A stretch of DNA of 64,000 bases from Pyrodictiaceae archaeon (GTDB lineage Archaea; Thermoproteota; Thermoprotei_A; Sulfolobales; Pyrodictiaceae): NCBI GenBank assembly GCA_027036135.1, contig JALVSY010000030.1:1-64000 (forward strand), in the 5' to 3' direction. Under the pieces are notes generated by a model. The model saw only the letters and a program-made list of their open reading frames with translations. It was not told where the DNA came from and ran no database searches. The translations under genes and the position numbers were made by a program. How positions within the stretch are numbered: position 1 is the first letter of the stretch; each line of letters starts with the position of its first letter. Shown here in pieces: positions 39,910 to 55,938 of this stretch.

Positions 39910-40863
39910 CTACTTTTTCTTTTCCTGCAAGAATAATCTTATGCCCTCAATACTATCCATGAAGACGCCCTGGATCTGCTTGCTCCACGAGAGGCTCTCG
40001 TATAGCCGCCTTGCTAACTCATCGACCTCTAGTATCTTCTTTACTAATTCCTCTGAATCAGAACTGAGGTTCTTACTTATTATTTTGACCCACAGCTTTA
40101 CTTGCTCTCCATGCTTCTCCAAGAGGGCTCCGGGCCCCGGGCCTAGATGTGTTGGCGCAACCCACTCCGGGTTATACTTCTTCATTTTCTCAAGGCTCTC
40201 AAGGAAAGGCTCTAGCTTGAAAGGCGGCGGTGTTGTTGGTACGAGACCACCACTCAGGGGGTCATAAATCCCTGCTGAGTCTCCCGTAAATATTATCGTG
40301 TCCATTGGTAGCTCTAATACGATGCTCTGGTGATGGCTGGCGTGGCCCGGTGTATGGATTATCTCTAGCATGGTTTCTCCGAGCTCTACTTGTTCTCCAT
40401 CACTTGTAGGACGGAGACCATCCATCGTGTAGGGTACTGGTTCGCCGAACTCGTGGGCGCGTTCCCCGAGGACTTGCTGTGACGCCGCCCATAGCTTCGT
40501 GGGGTCTCTTAGGTGGCGTTCTCCCCTTGGGTGAACAAATGTCTCAACACTAAAGCCTCTCTGGGCTAGATACTCAGCTAGCCTTGCCGCGCCACCGCCA
40601 TGGTCTAGGTGGATATGGGTAAGCACTATGTAGACCTTGCTGGTGCCGCGGCAGAGTCTTGTCACGGTCTCTGCTACTTGGCTAGCGGCGTTACTCGGGC
40701 CCGAGTCTATTAGGGCGCACGCCTGCCTATCCTTGACCAAGTATGTTTTTATAAAGTCTATGTCAAGCAACCAAGGCGATGCATCAACGATATAGACCTT
40801 TGCTCCTAGCCCGCTTTCAACAAAGACAACTGAGGGTATGACCAAGGCCGGCATAGCACCCAT
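39910..40863 (-). CDS. MBL-fold metallo-hydrolase
   Basis: THIHLDHGGG, PGHASHH, TGD, PTH. Confidence 0.9.
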   Translation of the reverse strand: MGAMPALVIPSVVFVESGLGAKVYIVDASPWLLDIDFIKTYLVKDRQACALIDSGPSNAASQVAETVTRLCRGTSKVYIVLTHIHLDHGGGAARLAEYLAQRGFSVETFVHPRGERHLRDPTKLWAASQQVLGERAHEFGEPVPYTMDGLRPTSDGEQVELGETMLEIIHTPGHASHHQSIVLELPMDTIIFTGDSAGIYDPLSGGLVPTTPPPFKLEPFLESLEKMKKYNPEWVAPTHLGPGPGALLEKHGEQVKLWVKIISKNLSSDSEELVKKILEVDELARRLYESLSWSKQIQGVFMDSIEGIRLFLQEKKK

Positions 40864-41092
40864 TACTTCTTTGCAAATTATAGGCTCTTAGCCCTAATAA
40901 GTAGCATTCGAGAACCCGGACACGGCCGACAATGGCGTCATTGCCTAGGAAACACTTAGCACTATGCTATGTGTTGCGAAAGCATCAAGGAGGAGCGATG
41001 ACTTTAGAAGAGTGATGAAAAGAGCGTGCTACTCTATTCCCAAAAATAGTGTTAAGGACTACTAAATGAAAAGTGTTCTGATGCTTTGTTGT

Positions 41093-41344
41093 TTATAGCT
41101 GTGCATCAAGGGTAACTGTTATTGTCTTCGCCAGGTGCTCTGGCTTCGTGTACCACTTGTCATAGGTATACTTCTTGCCCTTGAAGCTTAGCTCTACAAT
41201 CTCTCCCTTATCGCTGATATTCATTACGGTGTCTCCGTCCTTTACTAGCTTGAGCGTCGAGCCTACTAGGAGTGCCTTGAGGCCTTTCTCCTGTAGCTTG
41301 GGCTTTATGAGGTCCCTTACCTTTGAGAGGTACTCGCTGGGCAT
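41093..41344 (-). CDS. Small Lys-rich hypothetical protein
   Basis: Strong RBS GGAGGAG, upstream TATA-like TTAATAA, natural composition. Confidence 0.7.
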   Translation of the reverse strand: MPSEYLSKVRDLIKPKLQEKGLKALLVGSTLKLVKDGDTVMNISDKGEIVELSFKGKKYTYDKWYTKPEHLAKTITVTLDAQL

Positions 41345-41442
41345 TCTTCTCCTCCTCCGACGAGGCGGTGGAGGTGTTGCTACTTTATTAAGCCTTGCCC
41401 CCTTATACCCTCTGCGAAGAATTTATTGAGAAGCCGTGGCTG

Positions 41443-42444
41443 TTATGCTCCCCACTCTGTGGTCTTCTCAACTATGGAGCGGAATAGCTTGACTGCTGTG
41501 AGCTTTTCTGCCTCGTAGCCCTTCATCTCGGCTAGCTTTACTGAGGCCAGCCCAGCTATCCATGTGCCCCACACCATCTTCGATACAGTGTTTGTACCGC
41601 GCAGCTTCTCTACGTAGAAGTCAGCGGGTCTCGCTAGGCCCATGAACTCCTCTAATAACTTGCTCCAAGGCTCCTCAACGGGATCTATTACTAGGAAGTT
41701 GTAGCGCGCCTCATTGCTCCATCCCTCTAGTATATTATGACCCGACTCTGGTACATGCGAGGCATCGCTCGCAGACTTCGCGTTTTCTGCTAGCTCGCTC
41801 CTCGTCCTCACAGCAACGGGATAGTAGGGAGCCGGCGCCAACACTACTAAATTGCCCTGTACAGCCTTGAGCCACGAGGCTGTCTCAGAGGCCTGGTTCT
41901 CGGCTTCCCTGCGCTCGCTGAGGAGGCGGAGAGACTCCTCGATATCGGGGCCCGGTGTATTCAACAAACCATTACCCACTAGGCTACCTAGCAACGTGTA
42001 GAAGAGCTGAGGCCAACCAGCACGAGGCGCCGGGGCCTGCTCAACTATGGCTACAGGGAGGTTTCTCTCCCTCGCCCACGCTGCTAGCTTGCCACCAGTC
42101 GTGACTGCTACGACACGACCGCCCAGCTCGTAGCTCCTCCTCGCACAGTTGAGCGTCTCCCTCGTGTTGCCAGAGAAGCTGACAGCATAGACTAGGGCGC
42201 CGCGACTAACCCAGTGAGGGGGCTCAGCCTCCTTTAGCGAGACTATCACGGAGCCACCGTACCTTGCAGCGAGTACTGCTAGGTAGTCGCCAGCAGCCCC
42301 GCTCCCACCCATACCACATACGAGTACAAGGCTGCTCGCTGCGTAGCTGGCTGGGAGCCCGAGCGATAGGCCTGATAAATAGGCTCGGCGTGCTGGCTCC
42401 TCCCAGGAAAGATAGTACTCATAGAACCCATTCAAGCCTAGCAC
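41443..42444 (-). CDS. Bifunctional phosphoglucose/phosphomannose isomerase (SIS)
   Basis: CGMGGSG, SFSGNTRET, TTGGKL, ENAK, PESGHN. Confidence 0.85.
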   Translation of the reverse strand: MLGLNGFYEYYLSWEEPARRAYLSGLSLGLPASYAASSLVLVCGMGGSGAAGDYLAVLAARYGGSVIVSLKEAEPPHWVSRGALVYAVSFSGNTRETLNCARRSYELGGRVVAVTTGGKLAAWARERNLPVAIVEQAPAPRAGWPQLFYTLLGSLVGNGLLNTPGPDIEESLRLLSERREAENQASETASWLKAVQGNLVVLAPAPYYPVAVRTRSELAENAKSASDASHVPESGHNILEGWSNEARYNFLVIDPVEEPWSKLLEEFMGLARPADFYVEKLRGTNTVSKMVWGTWIAGLASVKLAEMKGYEAEKLTAVKLFRSIVEKTTEWGA

Positions 42445-42545
42445 CGAGTCTTATTAGCCACTAGCCTAGATACTTAAACAAAAATGAGGAACCAGCGTAG
42501 TGTATTCAGCGCTAAACACGTGACTATATAGAGCTACCTTGATTA

Positions 42546-43118
42546 CTAGACGCAGAATCCTAGCTCGCGTAGCTTGTGAACGACGAACTTCTTGTCCTCC
42601 TCCGGTAATAGTTCTACGTCTCTCCTGATTATCCTCTCGTCTATGCGCAGCCTCCCCGAGTCTATGTACTCCTTGACTATCCTTAGGTCCTCTATGTCGG
42701 GTTCGCGGGCAGCCTTTGCCTTCAAAACTATGTAGTCCTCGGGCCTGATGACGCGGATACTAGCACCGCTGATCTGCTTCGTGGACGCATTCTCTATTAT
42801 CTCGAGCGGGATATAGAAGTCGTGGATGTTCTCGTAAAACTCCGTTATTACTTCCTCGCCACTAGGAAGCCTTATGACGAACTTTGGTGTGCCCAGGGCT
42901 GTGTAGCTCATCTGCCAGCTATTACGAAACGCTATCTCCCTATACTGATCCTCCTCTATTAAGGGGCTTGGCTCGAGGACGAAGAAGTCTAAATCATCCT
43001 CGAATGATTTACGGCGAAGCTCTAGGTCGATAACAGTGCTCCCAATTATTACGCCGCGTATACCTTCTTCCTCAAGCTTCTTGACTAGCCACGCTATATC
43101 CTTTAATGTATAGGCCAA
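42546..43118 (-). CDS. Nucleotidyltransferase-fold protein (DUF2204-like)
   Basis: IIGS...DDLDFFV, PEDYIVLKAKAAREPDIEDL. Confidence 0.75.
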   Translation of the reverse strand: MAYTLKDIAWLVKKLEEEGIRGVIIGSTVIDLELRRKSFEDDLDFFVLEPSPLIEEDQYREIAFRNSWQMSYTALGTPKFVIRLPSGEEVITEFYENIHDFYIPLEIIENASTKQISGASIRVIRPEDYIVLKAKAAREPDIEDLRIVKEYIDSGRLRIDERIIRRDVELLPEEDKKFVVHKLRELGFCV

Positions 43119-43294
43119 GACTGGGCGCCTCCGCTCTGCTTACTAGGGCGAAAACAATGTATTCCCGGGAGGCTTGACTATTGTTCTCTCTGTTTTTAGC
43201 TTGTGTGCTACAAGGCGTAGGGAAGCCTCGCTAGGACTATACTGTGCGACGATGCGCTAGGGGGCTTGCCCTCTTCCGTGTAGTATAAAAATAC

Positions 43295-44809
43295 TTGTAC
43301 TTTGCGAGAATCTGTGCTCGGGGGAATGTTGTAGATATGAGGAAACAGTTCATTCTCTCCCTTAGCCCTGCAGAGGCTCGGCGTTTACTCGGCTCGCTAC
43401 AAGACATGCTGCGCCGTGTCTCAGTCGTGGACGAGGTCGGAAGCAACTATGTGACGGTAGTGGTTCCTAAGGGTAGGCGTGGCACCGAGAAGGTACGACT
43501 ATTAATGGATATATACGAGACCGAGAACAGTACCGCAGCCATACTCTATAGCGATACCGATATGATGTTCATAGACATTACCGCTACTAGGCAAGGAGTA
43601 CAGACATCTATCACAGTTACTTGTCAAGGCGTAGGCCGGGTAGAGAAAATCATCGATACCCTTGGAAACGAGCTAGCGAATCTCGTGAGAACCCGGCTCG
43701 AGAACGCTTATCCCTCAACAGATATAAACGAAGAGGATAATAAGCTTGCAGCCCTCGAGAAGTCCCCACCGCTACTCACAACGCTTGTCTACTACGATTC
43801 CTTCATCCCTGTATTCAACGTCGTCCTCGAATCTGCTCTAAGGGTTCTATCAGCTCTGGGCCCAGATCACTACCTAGTCGAAGTTGAGAGCCTGGATGAG
43901 CGCGAGCCGTTCACGCTCCGCCTCGTCGTGAGAGAGAACAAGGTTACCGGTCTCTATGCAGAGCTTCCTGGCCAGCGTCTACGCGGGGATAGCGTCCTCT
44001 ATGCTAACTTTCCTCTGGCTAGGAGGGTCAATGTAAAGGCTTGGGCCCTTTACGGCGGCAGGGAGACAGTTGTCTACGCACCACTGGAGTTAACGAGTAG
44101 TGGAGACCACAGAGTATACTGGGTCTCGGTGAAGGGCTGCGCTGCATGCGGCGGATTATTATCTAATGGCTTCATGGTCGTTGATCGGAGAGAAGCCGTT
44201 CTCATCAACCCTGCTGCCCTCGAGGAGAGACACATAATTCACATAGAGGAGCTCTTACAAGGCCTTGATAACCTTAGACACATAGTCTTAACACATGTTG
44301 AGGCAGACCTCATAGCAGGTATCGAGACAATATTGTCCCATAACCCCAGGGTCTATATCCACGCGCCACCTTACCACGCCAGTCTGCTAAACTCAGCAAT
44401 TCGCCAAATAAGTGCCAACATAAAGACGCTGCCACTACGCGAGTCGGAGACCAACACGGGACGAACAAGACTACTAGTACTAGAGGGAGCAGCTAACTCG
44501 CCGCACAACATAGCGCTCTACGACCCAGCGTCAAAGGTGTTATTCGCCGGGGTTACACTGGGCTCTATTACTCCCCCCGGACTATGGGCTCCATTTGTAA
44601 GCGATGTGGAGGAGTACTTGAAGACTGTTGTCCCCTACGTGACGCACCTAGTTAACATCAGCAAACTAAGAGCTTGGACCGAGAGAGTGAGCAAGCTAGA
44701 CGTCGAGATAATAGCTCCTCATTACGGGCCACTGGTTATTGGTAGGGATGAAGTGCGCTCCGTAATTGCTAGGCTAAGAGAACTCGCAGACCTACTAAGC
44801 AGCGCATAG
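43295..44809 (+). CDS. Multidomain protein: N-terminal alpha/beta domain, DUF2226-like module, degenerate FprA/ODP-like MBL domain
   Basis: SNGFMVVD...AVLINP, THVEADL, LYDPASKVLF, IIAPHYGP. Likely start ATG at 43337. Confidence 0.65.
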   Translation: MYFARICARGNVVDMRKQFILSLSPAEARRLLGSLQDMLRRVSVVDEVGSNYVTVVVPKGRRGTEKVRLLMDIYETENSTAAILYSDTDMMFIDITATRQGVQTSITVTCQGVGRVEKIIDTLGNELANLVRTRLENAYPSTDINEEDNKLAALEKSPPLLTTLVYYDSFIPVFNVVLESALRVLSALGPDHYLVEVESLDEREPFTLRLVVRENKVTGLYAELPGQRLRGDSVLYANFPLARRVNVKAWALYGGRETVVYAPLELTSSGDHRVYWVSVKGCAACGGLLSNGFMVVDRREAVLINPAALEERHIIHIEELLQGLDNLRHIVLTHVEADLIAGIETILSHNPRVYIHAPPYHASLLNSAIRQISANIKTLPLRESETNTGRTRLLVLEGAANSPHNIALYDPASKVLFAGVTLGSITPPGLWAPFVSDVEEYLKTVVPYVTHLVNISKLRAWTERVSKLDVEIIAPHYGPLVIGRDEVRSVIARLRELADLLSSA

Positions 44810-44820
44810 GCCAAGGAGAG

Positions 44821-45441
44821 GTGAGCGTGATGGCAGAGGGTGTTCCTCGCTTAGAGTTCAAGGGACTAGGCCCCTTCATACGTTATGGAGATATACAAGC
44901 CGCTCTCAGGAGAAGCAGGAGAGTAACAGTATCGATAGACCTTGATGCAGAGCCCCTCCTAGAGACCTGGGCTCGGAAACACCTCATAAAGGTACAGAAA
45001 ATGAGTGAAGGGATATACCTCCTTGCCTTCGAGGAGGCTAGCCTCGAGAAGCCAGCAGCGAGGCTAGAGATACCGGACTATATTCCCCAGGACCTTGCGA
45101 GGCTAGTGCCCTCGCCTACGATCACTAAGTGGAGGCGTGACCTCTCCGAGAAGCTAGCTGATCCCGCGCAGCTACTAGGTCTCGTCCTCAGAGCGCAGAC
45201 ACTATACCGTGGACCTGCCCGGGGAGAAGAGTTTGAGGACCTTCTTCGCAGAGAGGATCCCGTGCTACTAAAGGCAACCATTGATGGAAACGACGTGGTA
45301 CTGGTTATTAGGCATGGCGACGTAATAGCAGGAGCACGTATAAATAATGCGCTAACAGAGACGGAGGCAAAAGCTATCCTGCAGCGCGTGCTCCGAGAAG
45401 GCCTAAGCGTAACGATATACGATGTAGCCGCGCTCATCTAG
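44821..45441 (+). CDS. TusA-like N-terminal domain plus DUF2226-like C-terminal module
   Basis: LEFKGLGP...LETWAR...YLLAF; LVIRHGDVIAG...VTIYDV. Confidence 0.5.
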   Translation: MSVMAEGVPRLEFKGLGPFIRYGDIQAALRRSRRVTVSIDLDAEPLLETWARKHLIKVQKMSEGIYLLAFEEASLEKPAARLEIPDYIPQDLARLVPSPTITKWRRDLSEKLADPAQLLGLVLRAQTLYRGPARGEEFEDLLRREDPVLLKATIDGNDVVLVIRHGDVIAGARINNALTETEAKAILQRVLREGLSVTIYDVAALI

Positions 45442-46070
45442 GGTAGCTGGAACACTATTTTCTCATAGCCTCCGGTCCTGCCACCCCTCCTACCATATAT
45501 TGCTACGACATTATCGCCGACGATGTCCCAGTCCTCGTTACCGGGGCCCATGTCGACCTCAAGCACCCTGGAGCCCGGCGGAAATATCCAGTAGGCCTCA
45601 TAGTTATACTCTATTGGTTCCTGCTCGTAACGGTTCTCATAGGTGTTCCTCCCGGGCCGGAGAGGGGCGCGGAACCGGAGCCCAAACACTATGAAGACGC
45701 GGTCTCGGCGACCCCTAAACCCTATATCGACCAGGACAACGCGTGGACGGACACGCTCTCCATTAACGAGTACCTCCTCTTTATTAACTAGCTCCTGCAT
45801 ATTGTAGGCGAGAGACGCTGTTTCCTCCTCATAGAGCTTCTCGTCACGCAGCACAGCGTCATAGTACCCCATGGGGTCTATATAGTCAAATACAATATAG
45901 TAGGCAATGTAGCGGTAACCGACATAGAAGAAGCCCTGGGCATGAACCGGGGTTACGGCCTCACCAGCCTCTCTCAAGAAACTCTCTCTAAGCACACGCC
46001 GTGGGCCACGTCGCCCCAAGTCGCTGACACCGCTGAAAAATAATCGAGCCAGCCAAGGATAGCGCTTCAA
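45438..46070 (-). CDS. Hypothetical protein
   Basis: Long ORF coupled (4-nt overlap) to the DUF2226 gene. Confidence 0.65.
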   Translation of the reverse strand: MKRYPWLARLFFSGVSDLGRRGPRRVLRESFLREAGEAVTPVHAQGFFYVGYRYIAYYIVFDYIDPMGYYDAVLRDEKLYEEETASLAYNMQELVNKEEVLVNGERVRPRVVLVDIGFRGRRDRVFIVFGLRFRAPLRPGRNTYENRYEQEPIEYNYEAYWIFPPGSRVLEVDMGPGNEDWDIVGDNVVAIYGRRGGRTGGYEKIVFQLP

Positions 46071-46789
46071 GGGGCTAAATAGATCTTACAATTCATTGGC
46101 TCCTCGAGTTCCTCGACATGATTGCCATTTACATCGGCTGCTGCACAACCATTACTTGTACAGACAACATTAATGATGCGGTTATGCCGGGTAATGCACC
46201 TAGCATAGGCTACACTATATGACCCGCGGCTCTCGCTAAGTGCCGCTATGACTTTGCTAAGCCTATCACTACTTATCTCTGTGCTTTTCTCAGCATGTAG
46301 AACAATACGTAGCAATGCCGCAACGTCCCGGGCAAGGCTTAGGGCCTCATGGCTGAACCCGATACGGGGCTCCTCGCTAGGCGTACCCTGTGCATGGCTG
46401 GCCTCAATGGCTTGGGACACTGGCTTTTCTCCAAGAAGCTGCTCTACGCTGAGCCCTGGTACACGGGCATTAGGGGCATACTCTAGGTCGACTCGTATCT
46501 TTTCATCATTGAGCTGGATGACTTCAACGTATCCGTTTCTCTCCCCGAGCTTCTCGCGGAGCAGCTTAATGGCCTCTTCTCCCCTTATTATGTTCCCGCT
46601 CGTCTTCTCTTCGGCCATTACCGCTACTATTCTACCCCTTTGAAGCTCGAGTTCTATAGTATAGTTATCAAGGTATATGACTAGTCTTCCACTAAACCCT
46701 CTCGCTGCATAATCCTTTATAATGCTCTGCAAATCCTCTTCGAACAAGTTATGGAATTTTATGGTCTTGCCGCGACTAAGGAACAGCAC
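46067..46789 (-). CDS. DUF2226-like domain protein
   Basis: FSGRLVI...GRIVAV...GEEAI...YVEVIQL pattern. Confidence 0.65.
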   Translation of the reverse strand: MLFLSRGKTIKFHNLFEEDLQSIIKDYAARGFSGRLVIYLDNYTIELELQRGRIVAVMAEEKTSGNIIRGEEAIKLLREKLGERNGYVEVIQLNDEKIRVDLEYAPNARVPGLSVEQLLGEKPVSQAIEASHAQGTPSEEPRIGFSHEALSLARDVAALLRIVLHAEKSTEISSDRLSKVIAALSESRGSYSVAYARCITRHNRIINVVCTSNGCAAADVNGNHVEELEEPMNCKIYLAP

Positions 46790-46932
46790 CTCTTTTTCAC
46801 CGACGCACTAGCCCAAGCTAAGCTAATCCACTAGCTAAAGTAAAGAACGTAGAGAAAAATAAACAATATGTCCTAGTCATGGATTAAACAAATGAGATAG
46901 AAAGAAGCACTGAACAAAATAATTATACCTGG

Positions 46933-47292
46933 TTAGAGAGCAGCCTTTATCCGGTCCTTCTGCTTCTTCATCTCATACCTTATTCTGCCAAGGTAAGCCG
47001 TCCTATCAGATATGACCGTAAATACTGCTTCACCAAGGTCTTCTAGGAGTACATAGCTGTTAGCGTACTCTAGGATGACCATATCCATGTCTCCTAGTTT
47101 CAGCTCTGAGCCCATTCTATCAGCTGCACCATAGACAGTGGTTATCATCGCTGCCAACGCGTCGAGGTCTATCTCCAGCCCACCGGGTGTTGAGGCCTCT
47201 ATGACGAAGCCGTCTTTGCTCACGATTATTGCTCCGCGCACACCCTGTATACGTGTAAACTCTGCGACAATTGTTTGGAGCGGGGAGGACAT
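46933..47292 (-). CDS. Roadblock/LC7 (MglB-like) protein
   Basis: GVRGAIIVSKDGFVI, LAAM, ELKLGDM, LGRIRYEM. Confidence 0.92.
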   Translation of the reverse strand: MSSPLQTIVAEFTRIQGVRGAIIVSKDGFVIEASTPGGLEIDLDALAAMITTVYGAADRMGSELKLGDMDMVILEYANSYVLLEDLGEAVFTVISDRTAYLGRIRYEMKKQKDRIKAAL

Positions 47293-47405
47293 GGCCCTCT
47301 TTCCTCTCTGCTACTCTTCCACAATATGCAAACCCACTTACAAGTATTAAAAATGTCTTAGGCTCTTATATTAGTATTTTAGCCCCATATTTACTAATAT
47401 CGATA

Positions 47406-48015
47406 TTATGAGTGCAGCGGCAATATCTCTTCAACAATTATTGTCAAGGGCTCGCTCTCGCTTCGAGGAAGCAGAGTAGTTACATTAACCCTAGCCCTAG
47501 GATTCCTCTCAAGAAGCATCTTCCTAACAATAGCAGCCACTATCATCGCCTCAGGGCTTAACGGGTACTCACGGAGCCCCCCTCTTTACAAGAACCTTGT
47601 GAACAGGCATAAACATACTATCCTTTATCTCCACCCTGTAGCGGCGAAGCTTCCTACCATGCTTCTCCACGTCTTCAAGCCTCTCAACCCTAACCTCTTT
47701 CGCTATACCAAGCTTCTTGAGAACATCAGCTATTAGCTCATGGGGCTCAGATACATTATAACTTATTTTACCCTCAAGCTCGCCTAGAACCTCAAGTATA
47801 AGGTCACCTATCTCGCCGAGAAGCATCTGCGTCATAGCACCAGCTCCAGCACTACCAAGGGCACGATAAAGAGCCATTTGGTAACCAGCAAGTATAGCAT
47901 AGCCAACCATATCCAATTTCTTCCTATCCCTCCACTCAGTATTCACGCCTTCATACTCAGATATCATTGTTCGGGCCTCCATCCGGACACCCTTTTTATC
48001 TAACTTATTAAACAT
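47406..48015 (-). pseudogene. V4R-like protein with a +1 frameshift in a G6 run
   Basis: Removing one G at 47577-47582 extends the ORF (KRGLREYPLSPEAMIVAAIV...LPLHS*) to 47406. Confidence 0.55.
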
Positions 48016-48327
48016 AGCTAGAACCCCATATAATATCTTTTGATAAATAAATAAGCACCTATATTATTTCCATGACGAGTACCATATATCATATAGGGTA
48101 TAAATCATCTGCGCACTCCATGTACATGAGCATATTCATAGACGGGCTCCCATAGTATAGCAATGCACTAAAAGCAAGCATATTACTAAATCACAAGCTA
48201 CAATGCTTCATGAAATCTTTTCAGGAAATGAAAGTAGTTACAAATAAAGTAATACACCCACCACTCAAACCAAAAGAACAATGTACAAGTGCCTTTCGCT
48301 TTCCTAGCGTCTTCGCAGTAGAATTAG

Positions 48328-48402
48328 TGGGCCCGGGGGGATTCGAACCCCCGACCTCCCGGTTATCAGCCGGGCGCTCTAACCGGGCTGAGCTACGGGC
48401 CC
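48328..48402 (-). tRNA. tRNA-Ile: tRNA-Ile(GAT), no intron, CCA not encoded
   Basis: GGGCCCG acceptor stem, anticodon arm CCCGG-CTGATAA-CCGGG, GGTTCGAATCC T-loop. Confidence 0.97.
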
Positions 48403-48620
48403 GTTCCCAGGTATAGTGGTGTTCTCTCACCATATAAGGGGCTATTTTTATCTTCACTTTCTTCCAGGTAAGATATACAGCCTTACTTCTTCTTGGTTAC
48501 TTTGTTACTTTAAGAAGTATTTGTTAGGAGACTCCATGTTTCGGTGAACCCTAGCTATTTATTTTATTGATTGGATTTAGCAGAAGCTATTTTTGTTATC
48601 TCATATAACTTTTAGTATGA

Positions 48621-49589
48621 GTGGCGGGGCGAATGGAGACTTCCTTGCTTCTTGAGGCTAGGCAGAGTGCTGTGAGCGATATAGAAGTTTATTCAAAGCT
48701 TATCGCTATGACTGTTGTTGGTGTAGAGGAGGCCATAGGTAGTAACATGGTTGGTGGCTTCGTGAACCTGGTAGCGCGCAAGCTTGAAGAAGAGCTAGGA
48801 GTGCAACGTGGGAGCAATGTCCGCGAACTACTTGAATGGATTAATAAAAATACGGTACTTAGGCTCAATACTTATCGTGTTAAGGACCAACTTGTGCGCG
48901 ACGAGGAGAAGGGGCCTGCTTTCTATATGATTGCCTATGAGTGTCCAGTACGCCAGATACTTTACTTAGAGGATCTGCCTGGTGGCAGGGCACTATGTAT
49001 GATTATATGTCGTTTCCTTAGCAGATTGCTGTCGGGTGGTCTTGGCTCTAGTTGCAGGGTTGAACCAGCTCGGATTGGGCCTAATGCATGTCTTCTCCGA
49101 GTCGGTATTAGCAACTCTGTTAGGGAGAGGGTTAAGGAGCTTGATGTTACCTCTAGGAGCCCTGATATTAAGGAGTATGAGGAGTTATTGAGAAGGTTCT
49201 TCTCGGCTCTTCTCCGTAGCATAGGCTGGGCGCTTAATACGCTACTTGGTGGGAACCCTGCTATGAGTTACAGAGCAGGGAAGAGCTACGGAAGGCTTGT
49301 TGGAGCCTCTATTCTTGCACAGGGTTATGAGGCTAGTTCCCTAGATGAGGCGGTCAACATATTTAATTCTTCTATGAAAAGCTTGATAAGCATACGTATA
49401 AGTGGCTCCGCGATAGTTATCGAGAAGAGCTGGTTCGATGAAATAATTGAAAAGGAGGCAATAAATCACTCAGAGTTCATTAAAAGAGTTGTCCAAGGCT
49501 TTATCGCAGGCTCTCTCGAGACGCTACTTGCAAAACGAGTTGATCTACGCTCCCTAGGTGATAACAAGTTCGAGGTGATAATACGGTGA
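48621..49589 (+). CDS. Tandem V4R-like domain protein
   Basis: YECPVR...ALC...C...ACLL in domain 1; YRAGKSYG...GFIAGSLE in domain 2. GTGA overlap with the hydrogenase small subunit. Confidence 0.65.
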   Translation: MAGRMETSLLLEARQSAVSDIEVYSKLIAMTVVGVEEAIGSNMVGGFVNLVARKLEEELGVQRGSNVRELLEWINKNTVLRLNTYRVKDQLVRDEEKGPAFYMIAYECPVRQILYLEDLPGGRALCMIICRFLSRLLSGGLGSSCRVEPARIGPNACLLRVGISNSVRERVKELDVTSRSPDIKEYEELLRRFFSALLRSIGWALNTLLGGNPAMSYRAGKSYGRLVGASILAQGYEASSLDEAVNIFNSSMKSLISIRISGSAIVIEKSWFDEIIEKEAINHSEFIKRVVQGFIAGSLETLLAKRVDLRSLGDNKFEVIIR

Positions 49590-50590
49590 GCAAGCTTAGT
49601 TTCGCCTTTGTCCCTCTAAGCGGCTGTGGCGGGTGCGAGGTACAAGTTCTTCGCGCCTTCACCCTTCACCCGGAGCTAGAAGAACTCTACGATATAGTTT
49701 ATTGGCCCATGGTTGTTGAGACCACCGAGATCCCGGAGAAAGTTGACGTCGTGATGGTGGAGGGACTCGTCAGGACCAAGGAGAACCTCGAGAAGCTGCG
49801 AAAAGCGCGCTTCGCTGCCTCAAAACTAATAGTTGTTGGAAGCTGCGCTTCTTGGAGCGGTATCGGTGGCGCCGCCGACGCGCTCAGCGCGAGGCTCAGC
49901 ATGAAGGCGATATATGGGAGAGAACAGATAAATGAAGATGAGGCGCCCGAGATCCTGCCAAGAGTATTTGCTCCCTCGGACCTAGTTCCCGTCGACTACA
50001 TTATCTCCAGGTGCCCTCCACCCGTAGAGCATATAGTGATAACTCTCAAGGCCGTCGCAAAGGGCAAACCAGTACCCACGGCAACTAGCACTGTTTGCAG
50101 CCAGTGTCCGCGGAAGATGAAACCCATAGAGAAGCTCGAATTCAAGCCCGGGCTTCCGGGCCCCGATGCCGACCCAGAGACTTGTTTCCTTAGCCAGGGC
50201 TATCTCTGCCTAGGCTCTGTTACAACTGTTGGATGCGGTGCACCATGTCCACGCTTCGGTATACCATGTTTTGGCTGCGGTGGCCCACACTACGAGATTG
50301 CAGAGAGAAGAGATATGGATATCATTACCGCTCTTGCAAGGAAGATAGCGACATTGGCTGGGCTTGATCCAGTTAAGGATCTAGACATAGTGATTAAGAA
50401 GCTCCTAGAAGCGTACGATCCCAGGCGCTTCTATGTATTCACGCTGGGCTCTGAAGTGCTTAGGAGAAAGCCGCAAGGATACGCTGTACAAGCCATAGCA
50501 AGAAGCAAGCAGGATCCCAAGTACCGTAAGCTACTTGAGGAGAGGGCCAAGTTTGTTACCGAACAAAGTATTAACAGAAATGAGGAATAA
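49586..50590 (+). CDS. [NiFe] hydrogenase small subunit (group 3/MvhG-like)
   Basis: CGGC, GSC, CPP, CSQC, CF...CLG...C..CP...CFGC. Confidence 0.9.
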   Translation: MSKLSFAFVPLSGCGGCEVQVLRAFTLHPELEELYDIVYWPMVVETTEIPEKVDVVMVEGLVRTKENLEKLRKARFAASKLIVVGSCASWSGIGGAADALSARLSMKAIYGREQINEDEAPEILPRVFAPSDLVPVDYIISRCPPPVEHIVITLKAVAKGKPVPTATSTVCSQCPRKMKPIEKLEFKPGLPGPDADPETCFLSQGYLCLGSVTTVGCGAPCPRFGIPCFGCGGPHYEIAERRDMDIITALARKIATLAGLDPVKDLDIVIKKLLEAYDPRRFYVFTLGSEVLRRKPQGYAVQAIARSKQDPKYRKLLEERAKFVTEQSINRNEE

Positions 50591-50670
50591 GGCTTTGTTT
50601 ACTTCTTTTTCTTCTTTTAGCGCACACATATACGCGGCTTAGCATGGCCACTATTTAAGGGGGATGTGTA

Positions 50671-52128
50671 GTGGAGGAGAATAAGAACCTCGTAAAGGAA
50701 CATAGACGGCTACGCAGGGTCTTAATGACCCTTATCGAGGGCCACGCCTATGTTGTATTCAAGACGAATAAGGGTGTTGTTGAGGATGTCCTCTTCCAAG
50801 GCGTTGATACACGTATGTTCGAGACCATGTGGATAGGCATGCTGATCGATGAATTGCCACGAGTAACTCCAATGATTTGTGGTGTTTGTAGTGCAACTCA
50901 TCACGTGGCTAGCGTTAAGGCTGTTGACCAGGTAAAGGCTGTTGAGCCCCCGGAGGACGCTAAGCGGATAAGGTATATGATAAACTATGGTATTCACTTG
51001 AATAACCAGGCACTTCACCCGCTTGTATTCGGGCTGCCTGACTTCCTCCCCGCTGATATCGACAAAAGGAGTGTTCTCCAGCTGGCACGAGTCAGCCCCG
51101 AGCTCGTAAAGGCTGGAATGAGAATAGTTGAGCTCGGGTTCAAGATAGTTGAGGTCTTTGGGGGCAGGGATATTCATCCAATAAACGGCATCGCTGGCGG
51201 CGTAACAAGGAAACCAAGCAGCAGTGATATTGATAGGATTAAGAGCCTTGTAGAGAAGCACCGCGGAGACCTAAGGATATTCGTAGACGGAGCGATAAAG
51301 ATGATGGAGGAGGCTAAGGCTAAGATAGAGACTTATAAGCCGGGCTACTCCTATATGATGGCTATAGCTGGGCCGAATAACTCCTATAACATAGTTGATG
51401 GGAGGGTTAAGATAATAGACGCGAAGACAGGGGCCGAGGTAGCAGAGTTCTCTGATAGGAGCACAGAGTATCTCGAGCATATCCAGGAATACACGGTCCC
51501 GTATAGCTATATCCGAATGGTTACAACGAAGTGGAGAGCAAACGCTCCTAAGACAGGGGCTATCAACGTGGGTGCACTAGCTCGTGCTAACATAGTAAAA
51601 AGCTATGGCTCAGAGACAGCTGATGAACTTAGAGACAAGGCGTTCGAGGAATGGGGTAAGCCGTTAACACATCCATTAATGGCCACGTACATGAGGCTTG
51701 TAGAGACTGTTGCACTCTATGACATAATTAGCGAGGAGCTCAAGAAGCCGCTAGGCGATAAGCTACGCAATGAGCCGCAGAGGGAAACCGGCGAGGAAGT
51801 AGGTATAATAGAGGCGCCACGCGGAACACTAATCCATCACTACCGGGCCGAGAATACTAAAACCACGTTTATAAATATAATAACTCCTACTGCGATAAAT
51901 GCTGCCGCAATAGAAGCTGATCTAGGACAGTTCTTCAAGGATAAAAACATAGATTCTATGAGTGATAAAGAACTATACATGCATGCTGTATCAATCGTAA
52001 GAAGCTATGATCCATGCATGGCATGCGCAACACACGCTATGGATCCATCCCTGCGCTCATCGATCGCCATAGTGATAGCCGATAATAACTGGAAGCCGAA
52101 GAGGATAATTAAACCAGGAGGTGCTTAG
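50671..52128 (+). CDS. [NiFe] hydrogenase large subunit (group 3-like)
   Basis: IEGH, ICGVC, EAPRG, DPCMACATH plus a cleavable C-terminal extension. Confidence 0.92.
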   Translation: MEENKNLVKEHRRLRRVLMTLIEGHAYVVFKTNKGVVEDVLFQGVDTRMFETMWIGMLIDELPRVTPMICGVCSATHHVASVKAVDQVKAVEPPEDAKRIRYMINYGIHLNNQALHPLVFGLPDFLPADIDKRSVLQLARVSPELVKAGMRIVELGFKIVEVFGGRDIHPINGIAGGVTRKPSSSDIDRIKSLVEKHRGDLRIFVDGAIKMMEEAKAKIETYKPGYSYMMAIAGPNNSYNIVDGRVKIIDAKTGAEVAEFSDRSTEYLEHIQEYTVPYSYIRMVTTKWRANAPKTGAINVGALARANIVKSYGSETADELRDKAFEEWGKPLTHPLMATYMRLVETVALYDIISEELKKPLGDKLRNEPQRETGEEVGIIEAPRGTLIHHYRAENTKTTFINIITPTAINAAAIEADLGQFFKDKNIDSMSDKELYMHAVSIVRSYDPCMACATHAMDPSLRSSIAIVIADNNWKPKRIIKPGGA

Positions 52129-52131
52129 CCT

Positions 52132-52386
52132 ATGGTTAAGATAAGGATAGACCTTGATAAATGTAAGCAGTGTCTCAACTGTGTAAGGGCATGTACAGCA
52201 TTTGATGGCGTCTACGATGAAGGACCCGACGGATACCCGGTGGTGGCGAGACCCGAGGAATGCGTCCAATGTCTTATATGCCATACGGTATGCCCAACAA
52301 ATGCAATAATTCATGAGGATTATAGAGAGACTGTTATAATTAATCCAGACAAGGTTATAGTTGAGCGCTACCGGAATATGATATAG
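52132..52386 (+). CDS. 2x[4Fe-4S] ferredoxin
   Basis: CKQCLNCVRAC and CVQCLICHTVCP. Confidence 0.9.
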   Translation: MVKIRIDLDKCKQCLNCVRACTAFDGVYDEGPDGYPVVARPEECVQCLICHTVCPTNAIIHEDYRETVIINPDKVIVERYRNMI

Positions 52387-52573
52387 CTTTTAAGCTCTAT
52401 GGTATTTTTATATCCATAAAACACTACGTTGATACATATTAAAGCAATCATTTTAATAATAGAAAACGCTCATAGAGTTGCTTAGACATCTACGTCTAAA
52501 CACTTTTTGCCTTCCTTAATGTTTTAGAATAATTAGAGCTAAGGATGCTCTGCAAAGAACCTCCTTCGGGCAT

Positions 52574-53485
52574 ATGTGGTGGTGTATAAAGGTCTTGACC
52601 CTATCCCCCGAAGAATTGAAAAATTTTCTTATAGAACTAATACGCACAGCTGAGACAAGGCTCCCCGTTGATGTCTATGAGGCGCTGAAGCAAGCATATG
52701 AGGTAGAGGATAACCCTATTGCTAAGCAACACCTAGGCGCTATACTGAGGAATAGCGAGCTGGCAGCTAAGCTAGGTAAGCCTATTTGCCAAGACACCGG
52801 TACCCCGGTATTCTATGCAGAGATGGGGGCTGATTTCCCGCTCCGCTCAGAGTTCTACGACATCGCACGCGAAGCTGTACGGGAGGCCACTAAGCTTGTG
52901 CCCCTGAGGCCAAACGCCGTCGATCCATTCAAGAAGAAGAATACCGGTGACAATACTGGCAGATTCGTTCCTTGGTTCGAGGTAGAGATCGTACCAGGCA
53001 GCGACCTCAAGGTGACATTTGTTGCCAAGGGTGGGGGAAGCGAGGCGCCCTCAACGCTGCGCATGGGACTCCCCATAAGGGGTGTAAGGAATGTCTGGGA
53101 GACAGTGCTCCAAGCCATTGTTGAGGCTGGGCCTAAGCCATGCCCACCAGTAATTGTTGGTGTTGGTGTTGCTGCACTAAGCGACCAGGCAATGGCTCTG
53201 GCCAAGAGAGCTGCACTACTAAGACCTATTGGCGATAGGCACCCAGACCCAGAGATAGCCAGGCTCGAGGAAGAGATGCTTAAGGCCGTTAACGAGCTCG
53301 GTATCGGTGTCCACGGCTTCGGAGGCAAGGTCACTGCGCTGGATCTACACATAGAGTATGCCCACCGGCACCCAGCGACCTACGCCGTGGCTGTCGCGAC
53401 TAATTGCTGGGCGATGCGCCGCGCAACCGGGTACATAACGAGTGAGGGCAAGTGGGAGATCATATCCAAGCACATAACAGGGTAA
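52574..53485 (+). CDS. Class I fumarate hydratase / tartrate dehydratase alpha subunit
   Basis: PICQDTG, KGGGSE, PCPP, NCWA. Confidence 0.92.
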   Translation: MWWCIKVLTLSPEELKNFLIELIRTAETRLPVDVYEALKQAYEVEDNPIAKQHLGAILRNSELAAKLGKPICQDTGTPVFYAEMGADFPLRSEFYDIAREAVREATKLVPLRPNAVDPFKKKNTGDNTGRFVPWFEVEIVPGSDLKVTFVAKGGGSEAPSTLRMGLPIRGVRNVWETVLQAIVEAGPKPCPPVIVGVGVAALSDQAMALAKRAALLRPIGDRHPDPEIARLEEEMLKAVNELGIGVHGFGGKVTALDLHIEYAHRHPATYAVAVATNCWAMRRATGYITSEGKWEIISKHITG

Positions 53486-53514
53486 CCCGTGTCTCATATG
53501 GAGGTGAGTCCTAG

Positions 53515-54117
53515 ATGACAAACGTGTATCATCTACGTACCCCTCTCTCTGAGAAGGATGTTAGGAAGCTACGAGTAGGCGACACAGTGTATCTCTCCGG
53601 CCTAATATTCACGGCAAGAGACGCTGCGCACCGGAAGATACTTGACCTCATAAACCATGGCGAGAAACTACCCTTTGACCCAAGAGGACTAGCCGTATAC
53701 CACGTGGGCCCAGTTGTTAGGAGGAAGAACGGGGAATGGGAAGTAATAGCCGCTGGGCCAACGACTAGCGCGAGACTTGAGCCAGTCGAGCACGAGTTCA
53801 TAGCAAAGACAGGGGTAAGAATGATTATAGGCAAGGGCGGAATGGGCGCAAAGACAGCCGAGGCCTGTAAGAAGTACGGAGCAGTATACGCAGTGTTCAC
53901 CGGAGGCGCAGCAGTACTCGCCGCACAAGCAATCAAGAGAGTAGTAGACGTGTACTGGCTAGACGAGCTAGGCATACCAGAGGCTGTGTGGCTCTTCGAG
54001 GTAGAAGAGTTTGGTCCACTAACAGTAACGATAGACGCTACTGGCAAGAACCTATACGACGAGATACTGGAAAGAGCTAAGAGGAAAGCACAAGAAATAC
54101 TCTCAAGACTATCATAA
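53515..54117 (+). CDS. Class I fumarate hydratase / tartrate dehydratase beta subunit
   Basis: TARDAAH, GPTTSAR, IGKGGM. Confidence 0.92.
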   Translation: MTNVYHLRTPLSEKDVRKLRVGDTVYLSGLIFTARDAAHRKILDLINHGEKLPFDPRGLAVYHVGPVVRRKNGEWEVIAAGPTTSARLEPVEHEFIAKTGVRMIIGKGGMGAKTAEACKKYGAVYAVFTGGAAVLAAQAIKRVVDVYWLDELGIPEAVWLFEVEEFGPLTVTIDATGKNLYDEILERAKRKAQEILSRLS

Positions 54118-54205
54118 TTCTTTCTATGGAGATTCCAATAAAATATAATATTTTGAATAATTATGATAGAATATTTTGGAATAAAAATACGTGGCTTTAC
54201 CCAAG

Positions 54206-55138
54206 TTACTCTTTCAGCCACTCCTCTTTGAAATCTATATCGACTGGCTCCCTTGCCTGTTGCTCCGGGTCTACGCCTGGTAGCAAGTTGTGCTTTGGAT
54301 ACTCTGCTTTCACTTGTCTTAACGGTTTCTCGAGAGGCCCGGCTACTGGGCTTACTTTCTTCTTCCGCCATAGCTTGAGTCCATGTAGCAATGCTATGCG
54401 TCTTAGCTTCTGTATAGCCCCGGCAGGATCCACAGCCTTTGGACAGACAGCACTACAGCTGGCTGCAAAGTGGCAAGCAAAGCATCCATCCGCATTAGCT
54501 ACTATCGCTAGCCGTTTATCAGCTCCCGCATCACGGACATCAACTATGAAGCGATAGGCTTGTGTGAGAGCTTGAGGGCCAAGATACTTCTTGTTAGAGT
54601 TGAATACCGGGCAAGCAGCGTTACATAAGCCACACATTATACATAGACTATACTGATATATTTGAAGATGCTCCTCCGGGTACATTATGAACTCGTACTT
54701 AGCGTCATCAACTTCTTTTTTATCACGCCTAATTATGTATGGCATTATCCTTCTATGATTTTCTATGAGCCTAGTCATATCGACTATAAGGTCACGTACC
54801 ACGGGATACCCAGGAAGAGGCGCTATCTCAATAACATTGCTATGATTTTCTTCTAGGAGTTTAAGTACTTGTGTCTGACAAGCTAGTCTTGGCATACCGT
54901 TTATGAGCATACCACAGCTTCCGCAAACACCCATTCTACAACTATACCTCATTGATAATGTAGGATCAAGGTTCTCTTTTATCCATATCAGTGCATCAAG
55001 TACAGTAAGGCCACGGTACACTGGTACCTTGTATTCCTGTATCCACTTCTTCTTGGTCTCCGGGTTGTATCGATGAACCCGGAATACAGCTTCTTTGTGG
55101 CTAGGTATATTGGAGGCCATAGAGCCTTCACCAACCAA
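54206..55138 (-). CDS. sdhB: Succinate dehydrogenase/fumarate reductase Fe-S subunit
   Basis: CRMGVCGSC, LAC, CIMCGLCNAACP, CHFAASCSAVCP. Probable start ATG at 55120. Confidence 0.95.
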   Translation of the reverse strand: MVGEGSMASNIPSHKEAVFRVHRYNPETKKKWIQEYKVPVYRGLTVLDALIWIKENLDPTLSMRYSCRMGVCGSCGMLINGMPRLACQTQVLKLLEENHSNVIEIAPLPGYPVVRDLIVDMTRLIENHRRIMPYIIRRDKKEVDDAKYEFIMYPEEHLQIYQYSLCIMCGLCNAACPVFNSNKKYLGPQALTQAYRFIVDVRDAGADKRLAIVANADGCFACHFAASCSAVCPKAVDPAGAIQKLRRIALLHGLKLWRKKKVSPVAGPLEKPLRQVKAEYPKHNLLPGVDPEQQAREPVDIDFKEEWLKE

Positions 55139-55451
55139 AGGATCTTATTAAGCCTACTCCGCCAACCCATAGAACCGTTATTAATAGAATCCAGTAAACG
55201 ATCTCAGTGAATATTCTGCCAGCCTTGCCAGATACATAGTCGTACATAACTGAGCGAAAGCCCTCAAGGCCGTGATATGATGCGAATATGAGGAGGAGCC
55301 ATAGTACTGGTGACCGAGGGGGCTGCTGAATAGACCATGATGATGGTACATGATGCTCTAATAGGTGCAGAGGCAGGATTATTATTAGCAATAGCGCGAA
55401 TATGTATCTAAGGTTTTGCCTTATGGTTTCAAGCGTGGACATCAGAGTCAC
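55128..55451 (-). CDS. sdhD: SDH/FRD membrane anchor (SdhD-like)
   Basis: Three TMs, YHGLEGFRSVMYDY. Confidence 0.75.
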   Translation of the reverse strand: MTLMSTLETIRQNLRYIFALLLIIILPLHLLEHHVPSSWSIQQPPRSPVLWLLLIFASYHGLEGFRSVMYDYVSGKAGRIFTEIVYWILLITVLWVGGVGLIRSFGW

Positions 55452-55460
55452 CCCTCTATG

Positions 55461-55859
55461 CTACGGATAAGCTATTAATATATATGTATATATTGATATA
55501 AATAATATAGCCAATATTATTAGTACGTGTTGGAGTACTCGTTGCTTTGCACGAAGCGTTCCAGAAATATATGGCGGCTTCGGTAGCTCTGGCTTACCTA
55601 TAGCCAGGCCAAGGTACTCTGTTATTATTAGGCGTATACCATTAAGTCCATGTATACTAGCAACAGCTATCACAATAAACCTAATTATCTTTGACGAAAT
55701 TATATAAGATGATAAAGAAGCAAAACTAGTATATCCAGCAAATACAGCACCCATGCTTATTACGTGTATAAGGAAGTAGGCGAGAAGGATTAGGCCAGTA
55801 ACTCTGTGTAAGTAAAATGCAAGCCTCTCAGGATTATTCCTTATACTAACTCTTCCCAC
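55461..55859 (-). CDS. sdhC: SDH/FRD cytochrome b subunit
   Basis: LHRVTG, HV, HGLNGIRLI. Confidence 0.85.
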   Translation of the reverse strand: MGRVSIRNNPERLAFYLHRVTGLILLAYFLIHVISMGAVFAGYTSFASLSSYIISSKIIRFIVIAVASIHGLNGIRLIITEYLGLAIGKPELPKPPYISGTLRAKQRVLQHVLIILAILFISIYTYILIAYP

Positions 55860-55938
55860 ACAAGTTCACCTCCTATATCCTACTCATGGGCCCGCTAACT
55901 AGATGCAAGGATTGCATTATTGAGGGAAAAGGTAAATC

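Follow-up and report, generated by a model that had tools for sequence, protein, structure and literature searches.

Gene content of the locus

The window studied here is a stretch of 64,000 nucleotides from a Pyrodictiaceae archaeon (GCA_027036135.1, contig JALVSY010000030.1, positions 1 to 64,000), whose contig (C30) belongs to a 2.2-Mb genome of 99.6% completeness, designated G000. Within it, the span 43295-52386, as delimited in a preliminary description made from the sequence, contains ten open reading frames (ORFs) and one tRNA gene (Table 1). That description had read all ten genes as one modular, kinase-free network that would sense H2, O2/Fe and sulfur status and relay it through roadblock and DUF2226-like proteins to an unlinked small GTPase. 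Comparison with related genomes makes it probable that this single network fails and that the stretch consists of three separately inherited units: g1' and g2' (unit A), g4', g5 and g6 (unit B), and a four-gene operon, g7-hydS-hydL-fd (unit C), in which a tandem V4R protein precedes a [NiFe]-hydrogenase and a ferredoxin. Of these findings, the link between V4R and hydrogenase most deserves follow-up. Archaea commonly possess V4R domains, and hardly any of these has, to our knowledge, been given a partner or a ligand; because the g7 family comes with an unambiguous, co-inherited hydrogenase and ferredoxin partner set, the function of a V4R domain becomes directly testable.

Table 1. Features of the span 43295-52386, its flanks and related loci. 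Positions refer to the window unless another locus or contig is named.
Feature	Position	Strand	Length (aa)	Description
Unit C	48621-52386			Four-gene operon: tandem V4R protein, hydrogenase small and large subunits, ferredoxin
g7	48621-49589	+	322	Tandem V4R/Bet3/H-NOX-fold protein; probable ATG start at 48633; first gene of unit C
hydS	49586-50590	+		[NiFe]-hydrogenase small subunit, MvhG/VhuG-like; Oxidored_q6 E 1.3e-19, VhuG 2.3e-43, 5odc_E 7e-46
hydL	50671-52128	+		[NiFe]-hydrogenase large subunit, MvhA/VhuA-like; NiFeSe_Hases E 7.4e-27, VhuA 1.7e-53, 5odc_F 1.7e-68
fd	52132-52386	+	84	2x[4Fe-4S] ferredoxin; Fer4_10 E 8.5e-11; last gene of unit C
tRNA-Ile (GAT)	48327-48402	-		ARAGORN prediction; boundary between units B and C
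Unit B	46067-48015			Roadblock protein and two-module DUF2226-like protein; adjoining frameshifted 148-aa gene
g6	47400-48015	-		148-aa ORF (47569-48015) cut short by a frameshift within a G-run; coding resumes in the next frame as far as about 47400
g5	46933-47292	-	119	Roadblock/LC7 (MglB-like); PF03259 E 3.6e-16
g4'	46067-46789	-	240	DUF2226/PatA_N-like N-module (aa 1-~115), linker, weak second module copy
g3	45438-46070	-	<=210	Conserved protein of no recognised family
Unit A	43295-45441			ODP-type diiron-domain fusion and protein with SirA/IF3-fold N-domain
g2'	44821-45441	+	206	SirA/TusA/IF3-C-fold N-domain, disordered linker, C-domain (aa 106-201)
g1'	43295-44809	+	504	Unfamilied N-terminal region (aa 1-~285) fused to ODP-type diiron metallo-beta-lactamase (MBL) domain (aa 290-478)
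MBL-fold hydrolase	39910-40863			Stand-alone, upstream of g1'
PGI/SIS gene	41443-42444			Bifunctional type, upstream of g1'
DUF2204 nucleotidyltransferase	42546-43118			Upstream of g1'
Fumarase alpha and beta	52574-54117			Directly 3' of fd
SdhB/C/D/A-like set	54206-57777	-		After the fumarase genes
Eight-gene cluster	L054 6189-13719 = G000 contig C7 about 1204200-1211700			DUF2226-like (262 aa), double Zn ribbon (260), kinase-like (365), VWA (263), 255-aa protein, PP2C (280), SirA-fold g2 paralogue (193), ODP-fusion g1 paralogue (492)
Divergent V4R-hydS-hydL-fd operon	L027 7506-10775 (G256 contig 17)			Also at L028 and L029
Further V4R-like ORF	G000 contig C7 1121971-1122123		182	Pfam V4R E 1.7e-5, under cut-off

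A hydrogenase operon headed by a V4R protein

The g7 family is present in 14 of the 301 genomes of the class (G000 included), in 10 of the 22 genomes of the window's family and, on the scale of the phylum, in 6 of 401 genomes, all within the same order. At each of the 12 loci fetched, g7 is followed by hydS, and 11 of them hold all four genes with fd placed after hydL, L028 having yielded g7 and hydS only with the queries used. The two genes overlap by 4 bp in the window. When the ORFs of 11 of these loci were clustered, no other gene family was common to more than four of them. Across 23 genomes of the family, which are kin and not independent samples, the V4R and HydL genes were either both present (11) or both absent (12), and never found one without the other. 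Within the genus of the window the operon is patchy: G302 carries a HydL of 88% identity and none was found in G153, G219 or G301. The association persists where the identity of g7 has dropped to 24-26% (L027, L028, L029). These distant copies belong to a divergent second V4R-hydS-hydL-fd operon, which in one genome of the family occurs in addition to the standard one and is also found in genomes of two other families. The published record searched, from which subscription journals and supplements were outside the scope, contains no description of a V4R-led hydrogenase operon, and Podar 2008 (PMC2253512) mentions no hydrogenase, roadblock or operon. Homologues recovered for the proteins of the window include some from Pyrodictium abyssi (P0010) and Pyrofollis japonicus (P0034), which points to a family of Pyrodictium type and away from the Thermoproteales.

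A hydrogenase operon had been recognised in the preliminary description, and Pfam and NCBIfam models bear out its small and large subunits and the ferredoxin. The product of hydS has 13 invariant cysteines, keeps those for three Fe-S clusters and shows no evident signal peptide, while the large subunit has both Cys-pair motifs followed by a C-terminal extension. Comparison with L018-L022 shows that this tail comprises about 25 conserved residues past DPCxxCxxH (consensus ...I/V-V-A-D-E/N-N-W-K-P...), presumably the piece cut off on maturation; TAG codons flagged within the hydL matches of the family genomes are genuine stops. The ferredoxin has 8 invariant cysteines. The solved chains nearest to hydL and hydS are MvhA and MvhG of 5odc (1.7e-68 and 7e-46, respectively) and, the Ni-Fe and Fe-S ligands being intact, the enzyme falls by nearest match, and not by a reference tree, in Group 3c. 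Judged from its sequence, it is a cytoplasmic, Mvh-like (group-3c-like) hydrogenase. Its usual partner MvhD/FlpD (PF02662) gave no match in the 99.6%-complete genome, and the control search was positive in two methanogens. The proteome of Pyrodictium delaneyi includes a "type 3 cytoplasmic hydrogenase" (PMC8105010), possibly the same enzyme; that publication mentions no V4R gene beside it. Directly downstream of fd in the window lie genes for fumarase alpha and beta and then an SdhB/C/D/A-like set; these flanks (52574-57777) are not common to the hydrogenase loci of relatives.

A search of 5.8 billion proteins returned 32 homologues of g7, three of which had been named "predicted hydrocarbon binding protein" by the Joint Genome Institute. 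Of 25 aligned homologues, 15 are matched by the Pfam V4R model (PF02830) at E<=1 (best 1.1e-4), the window protein itself having no Pfam match at E<=10; the two homologues for which bit scores are available, from L027 (26.6) and L029 (23.1), stay below the 31-bit cut-off for family membership. In the L027 protein the V4R match covers the second half, the first half matching ATC_hydrolase above the cut-off (29.7 vs 28.1 bits), and in the L029 protein it falls in the N-terminal half. Searching the Protein Data Bank (PDB) with the g7 profile gave chance matches only (E 0.69 and 1.4). The AlphaFold2 model of g7 (predicted local distance difference test, pLDDT, 90.5; predicted template modelling score, pTM, 0.88) has two similar halves. 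Alignment of its residues ~205-322 with VIA-align retrieved the TRAPP core (Z 10.8), BcsD (10.7), PoxR (10.2), DmpR (9.4) and the V4R protein MJ1460 (8.6), and the C-terminal half is thus predicted to adopt the V4R/Bet3 alpha-beta fold. With the Pfam matches of the homologues and these fold neighbours, TRAPPC3 among them, the preliminary assignment of a V4R gene at the head of the hydrogenase genes is upheld. Since g7 has no DNA-binding domain, it is not a transcription factor. Four of its residues, E107, C108, C126 and C157, are invariant and C130 is nearly so, being lost only in distant copies; the other three cysteines and the preceding Glu/Asp are retained in these distant copies too. Prediction of a complex of HydS, ferredoxin and g7 gave scores of 0.83, 0.83 and 0.84, against 0.00 and 0.00 when the partner was replaced and 0.79 when HydS was replaced. 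Given this last control, the score is not specific to HydS and may stem from the ferredoxin chain that was kept; it counts neither for nor against binding by g7. Elsewhere in G000, contig C7 encodes a further V4R-like protein (Table 1).

The roadblock, DUF2226-like and ODP-type genes

On the other side of the tRNA, three DUF2226-like proteins had been proposed. One of them, g4', can be sustained by profile search in spite of a sub-threshold Pfam score (DUF2226, PF09987; E 6.6e-4, 19.7 bits against a gathering cut-off of 22, together with a DUF4388 match that is also sub-threshold). A profile built from 13 N-modules was run against 1.84 billion representatives and matched 88 proteins at E<=1e-3. 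Pfam was run on 87 of these: 8 carry DUF2226 at E<=1e-3 (6 above the cut-off, one of them with DUF4388/PatA_N too), 79 show no DUF2226 match at that E-value, and two are plain false positives (Calx-beta, Big_13). This transitive search places g4', at the superfamily level and as far as sequence relationships can tell, in DUF2226, a family of which we found no description in the published record searched. When 89 proteins were scanned with the same hidden Markov model, 57 showed a weak second match in the C-terminal part (i-E<=0.01 in 11 cases), which would fit the duplicated module suggested for g4', the second copy being weak. Homologues of g4' at 62-98% identity occur in nine clusters from other samples.

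The neighbouring g5 was correctly described as a roadblock protein. It is the sole roadblock match found in G000 and has a weak NCBIfam match to MglB (9.1e-5). PatA_N is tied to roadblock operons, and roadblock genes adjoin g4-like genes at L042 and L053 as well, so that the pair recurs at three loci in two genera, the g4 copies concerned forming one clade. Next to them, g6 is interrupted by a frameshift, and the following frame encodes the conserved C-terminal ~55 residues that restore the ~195-aa form of its relatives. Of 29 family genomes, 15 have a homologue, counting G000 itself, and the 14 homologues from outside G000 are about 190-200 aa long; the frameshift is either an assembly error or the mark of a recent pseudogene. 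Regarding the claim of two V4R-like genes, g7 stands, whereas g6 has Atlas leads (DUF5943, ATC_hydrolase and MetOD1, at 0.87-0.92), no Pfam match and a weak hhalign match to g7 (P 0.061 over 24 columns). MetOD1 is described as similar to V4R and HNOB in PMC5847659, and g6 possibly belongs to the V4R/ATC-hydrolase superfamily.

In unit A, the ODP-type MBL domain that had been proposed for g1' is clearly recovered: it scores 67.7 bits with Pfam PF19583 (cut-off 27.2; E 1.7e-18), and among solved structures it comes closest to oxygen-binding diiron proteins (6qrq, 9.2e-13; 6qnm, 1.3e-10). Among the residues that we take, from the alignment, to be the diiron ligands, the H-V-E-A-D stretch (HxExD), the His of SPH and the Asp of YDP are present; the His position of APxHG is occupied by Tyr, with a His one residue earlier. 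Several orthologues lack most ligands, and g1' retains more of them than the copies of the eight-gene cluster described below. ODP is a chemotaxis O2 sensor. The N-terminal region of g1' has no Pfam match at E<=10, and the search of 5.8 billion proteins found only 2 full-length homologues.

The TusA-like part claimed for g2' holds for its fold but not for its cysteine. In the AlphaFold2 model (pLDDT 82.7), the N-domain is beta-alpha-beta-alpha-beta-beta, and residues 8-72 align with Smr (Z 8.3), SirA-like 3hz7 (7.5), SepF (7.4) and TusA (3lvj_C, 7.1); because Smr and SepF tie with them, the SirA/TusA match is one of fold level only. Residues 1-72 contain no cysteine, and alignments of 6 or 9 homologues have no invariant cysteine column; TusA/SirA sulfur carriers are defined by a conserved cysteine that bears the persulfide. 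Sulfur sensing through g2' is therefore unsupported. The C-domain of g2' is possibly related to the DUF2226 module: hhalign against the N-module, over collinear stretches, gives marginal matches for both g1' (P 0.014) and g2' (P 0.0062), whose scores are reached by 0 of 110 column shuffles and approached by reversed controls (18.9 vs 22.2; 14.7 vs 21.4). Atlas leads for such modules in the two proteins are weak (0.82 and 0.79). As in the window, g2 adjoins g1-like genes at L043, L044, L049, L050 and L055. Of the genes upstream of g1', a stand-alone MBL-fold hydrolase, a PGI/SIS gene and a DUF2204 nucleotidyltransferase, the last two border the g1 locus in other genera as well. Between units A and B lies g3, which is not evidently part of any unit; its sequence is 76-82% identical across genera, far above its neighbours, and has no Pfam, NCBIfam or PDB sequence match. 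Alignments place its true start, probably, 18-30 codons inside the ORF.

A probable parent cluster elsewhere in the genome

G000 encodes on contig C7 an eight-gene cluster (Table 1) that is also present in G153, of the same genus, and in G063, G096 and G272. Its members include paralogues of g1', g2' and g4', to which the window proteins are 35%, 29% and 28% identical, respectively. Phylogenetic trees place g1' and its orthologue in G153 on a long branch next to the copy of G063; g4' clusters with its counterparts beside roadblock genes in G153 and G264 and is separated from the copies that lie in the eight-gene cluster (support 94/98). The 365-aa protein matched 18 PDB sequences at E<=1, every one of them a protein kinase, and its sequence contains what we take to be kinase motifs: a Gly-rich loop with a Lys after it, and the stretches H-x-D...N and D-x-E. 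With its PP2C gene, the cluster resembles, in gene content, a module for Ser/Thr phospho-signalling that has a diiron protein as its sensor. Pfam detects no FHA domain in it, and neither its VWA nor its Zn-ribbon protein matched an Arn sequence in the PDB at the thresholds applied. Since g1', g2' and g4' are diverged copies from a cluster with kinase-like and PP2C genes, the wiring of units A and B is likely to be phosphorylation-based.

This changes the outlook on the kinase-free character claimed for the locus, which is true of the window but not of the genome, where two Pkinase matches exceed the cut-off in addition to the kinase-like gene of the parent cluster. The statement that the window lacks two-component genes is correct; in the whole genome there is no response regulator, and the only HATPase_c match is outside the window. 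As for the unlinked small GTPase, the genome has 3 matches to PF00071, each below the cut-off and located on contigs other than that of the window, MglA-specific models not having been tried.

Inheritance of the units

In relatives, none of the 12 hydrogenase loci has a homologue of g1-g6 in the flanks that were fetched. In the complete genome of the same genus, G153, PGI, DUF2204, g1', g2' and g3 lie together (L055) at about 1.099 Mb, roadblock, g4' and a Zn-ribbon gene (L042) at about 0.688 Mb, i.e. ~410 kb away, and the g6 homologue at a third place; V4R and hydrogenase genes were not found. The copies of g1', g2' and g4' in this genome are 68%, 58% and 31% identical to those of the window. 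Roadblock genes have other neighbours in other genomes, namely Band_7 and UPRTase genes in G063 and G068 and an HrcA-CBS gene in G034. The genes left and right of the tRNA-Ile are thus unlinked in relatives, which contradicts the proposal of a single network. What remains of the proposed linkage is two pairs, roadblock with DUF2226-like protein and V4R with hydrogenase, but not ten genes acting as one network; adjacency in a single genome was no evidence of a system.

The possibility of a tRNA-linked island was also considered. The window contains no second copy of the end of the tRNA-Ile at <=3 mismatches, no direct repeats of at least 16 bases occur in 40000-56000, and the GC content of both 45438-48015 and 48621-52386 lies at the 35th percentile of the 3-kb windows of the genome. 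With no att-like or direct repeats and an ordinary GC content, the locus shows no sign of a recent insertion.

Proposed functions and alternative explanations

We believe, with good though not complete confidence, that the stretch is a genome-specific juxtaposition in which units A and B are accessory sensor/adaptor copies and unit C is a hydrogenase-ferredoxin system with an obligate V4R partner. From the domain identities, the gene linkage and the phyletic pattern, we infer the following for the electron path, the role of g7, sensing by the ODP domain and phospho-signalling. HydL would split or make H2, and electrons would pass along the chain of three Fe-S clusters in HydS to the 2x[4Fe-4S] ferredoxin of the same operon, which would take the place of the absent MvhD/heterodisulfide-reductase (Hdr) partner. 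The g7 protein would be an intramolecular pseudo-dimer of two ligand-pocket domains, one of them pinned by a Cys3(+Cys/Glu) metal site, and would most likely act at the ferredoxin/small-subunit side, tuning or gating the electron output according to a bound small molecule or metal. Units A and B would be diverged spare copies of parts of the eight-gene cluster, for which the ODP diiron domain would be the likely O2/redox input, the DUF2226-like and roadblock proteins serving as adaptors.

Linkage, fold and lack of an output domain argue for g7 as a protein-level partner or gate of the hydrogenase, a role to which we give a little less than an even chance and which is favoured over that of a maturation factor or of an outward-signalling sensor. 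A bolder version would make g7 an unrecognised subunit of a distinct Mvh-like class, V4R2-HydSL-Fd, in which it replaces MvhD/Hdr coupling, its ligand pocket and Cys-metal site making the flow between H2 and ferredoxin conditional; this we regard as doubtful. If true, the class would be confined, among the genomes searched, to the window's family and a few lineages of the same order, and hydrogenase activity would be controlled independently of transcription, at the protein level, by a V4R/Bet3-fold module.

Several results weigh against the explanation put forward here. With Foldseek, the models of g7 and g2' gave no match at E<=0.001: the best rows for g7 were TRAPPC3 (2.6e-3, prob 1.00), DmpR, MopR and PoxR, and the lists included unrelated, low-probability entries such as CodY and gyrase. 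For g7 residues 17-169, VIA-align reached only YslB (Z 7.9) and H-NOX (Z 6.2), which is background level, and the partner role of the protein is read from linkage and fold only. The NCBIfam hydrogenase matches, VhuA and VhuG included, are all far under the curated cut-offs, so the subgroup assignment is one of nearest neighbour only. At low H2, passing electrons from H2 to ferredoxin is energetically difficult unless bifurcation is involved. The kinase-like call in the parent cluster depends on non-significant E-values (0.12-0.99, best 0.12). Regarding separate inheritance, G063 and G096 share a syntenic order PGI-DUF2204-g1-g2...g4-like-g3, with the whole cluster between DUF2204 and g3, so the adjacency of units A and B may be a remnant of an ancestral cluster and not pure chance; for the same reason, the window locus is probably the ancestral site of the cluster, now occupied by diverged remnants and a roadblock block. 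In addition, a close relative of the same genus, G219, has g6 and g4 on one contig.

The network of the preliminary description nevertheless appears very improbable. Its domain types are mostly as described, its genes are adjacent here, the genome lacks response regulators and the pair of roadblock and g4' is recurrent; but g1-g6 are absent from all 12 hydrogenase loci, units A and B lie ~410 kb apart in G153 where unit C was not found, no Ras-type GTPase exceeds the cut-off, the cluster holds a kinase-like gene and a PP2C gene, and the SirA-fold domain has no cysteine. It is also improbable, if less so, that the duplicates in units A and B are decaying and now serve little or no function. The frameshift in g6, the long branches (1.53 changes per column for g1', 0.8-1.06 for g4'), the replacement of the last diiron His in g1' and the presence of a full cluster elsewhere in the genome would agree with decay, but g1', g2' and g4' are intact ORFs that have been kept in G153, g4' has its close homologues in nine clusters from other samples, g1' has more diiron ligands than the cluster copies, and the frameshift, located in a homopolymer run, could have arisen in assembly.

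For g7, a part in maturation or assembly of the hydrogenase (delivering metal, holding subunits) or as a sensor with a non-hydrogenase target has to be weighed; taken together with any other roles, we consider these unlikely. Strict linkage would fit a maturation factor equally well, the protein has a conserved Cys-rich metal site, and in other proteins V4R domains sense ligands, as in PoxR, MopR and DmpR, which are among the fold matches. Against this, the known [NiFe] maturation genes (Hyp proteins, endopeptidase) are not known to be related to it in fold, g7 has no output domain, and it is the first gene, translationally coupled to hydS, an arrangement that suggests equimolar production of the two proteins. 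We keep to a partner or gate of the hydrogenase as the favoured role. An Mvh-like hydrogenase working without MvhD/Hdr would bear on the supply of reduced ferredoxin in hyperthermophilic H2-oxidisers, while the eight-gene cluster is a candidate O2/redox-responsive phospho-signalling module in organisms without two-component systems and gives DUF2226 a genomic context.

Comparison with known systems

The eight-gene cluster recalls the Sulfolobus ArnA/ArnB system with its ArnC/D kinases and PP2A in combining VWA, zinc-ribbon, kinase-like and Ser/Thr phosphatase proteins. Unlike that system, its phosphatase is PP2C, no FHA domain or sequence match to solved Arn proteins was found, and DUF2226-like, SirA-fold and ODP-fusion genes come in addition. 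The C-domain of g1' resembles the solved ODP proteins (6qrq/6qwo, 6qnm/6r9n) in sequence and in its aligned H-x-[DE]-x-D and YDP motifs, but carries a ~285-aa unfamilied N-region and Tyr at one His position. The profile of g4' reaches bona fide DUF2226 (PF09987) proteins, its own group being a divergent subfamily of DUF2226/PatA_N (DUF4388, PF14332). Similarly, g5 is a clear Robl_LC7 protein, as in MglB/roadblock pairs with the MglA GTPase, whereas no Ras-family GTPase exceeds the cut-off and its recurrent neighbour is a DUF2226-like protein.

In the case of g7, the fold matches lead to V4R, TRAPPC3 (Bet3) and PoxR/MopR/DmpR, and its Cys-based site resembles the cysteine-built Zn sites of Thor-TRAPPC3 and PoxR, as described in PMC10933270. 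In contrast to these proteins, g7 fuses two domains in one chain, has no AAA+ or helix-turn-helix output domain, is fixed in a hydrogenase operon and, in the window, lies under Pfam detection. Finally, the hydrogenase of unit C shares with the Group 3c Mvh/Vhu enzymes (MvhAGD bound to HdrABC, 5odc), its nearest solved relatives, the cytoplasmic character and the cysteines for three clusters; unlike them, it is encoded in a genome where no MvhD/FlpD was found, and in place of that subunit its operon supplies a tandem V4R protein together with a 2x[4Fe-4S] ferredoxin.

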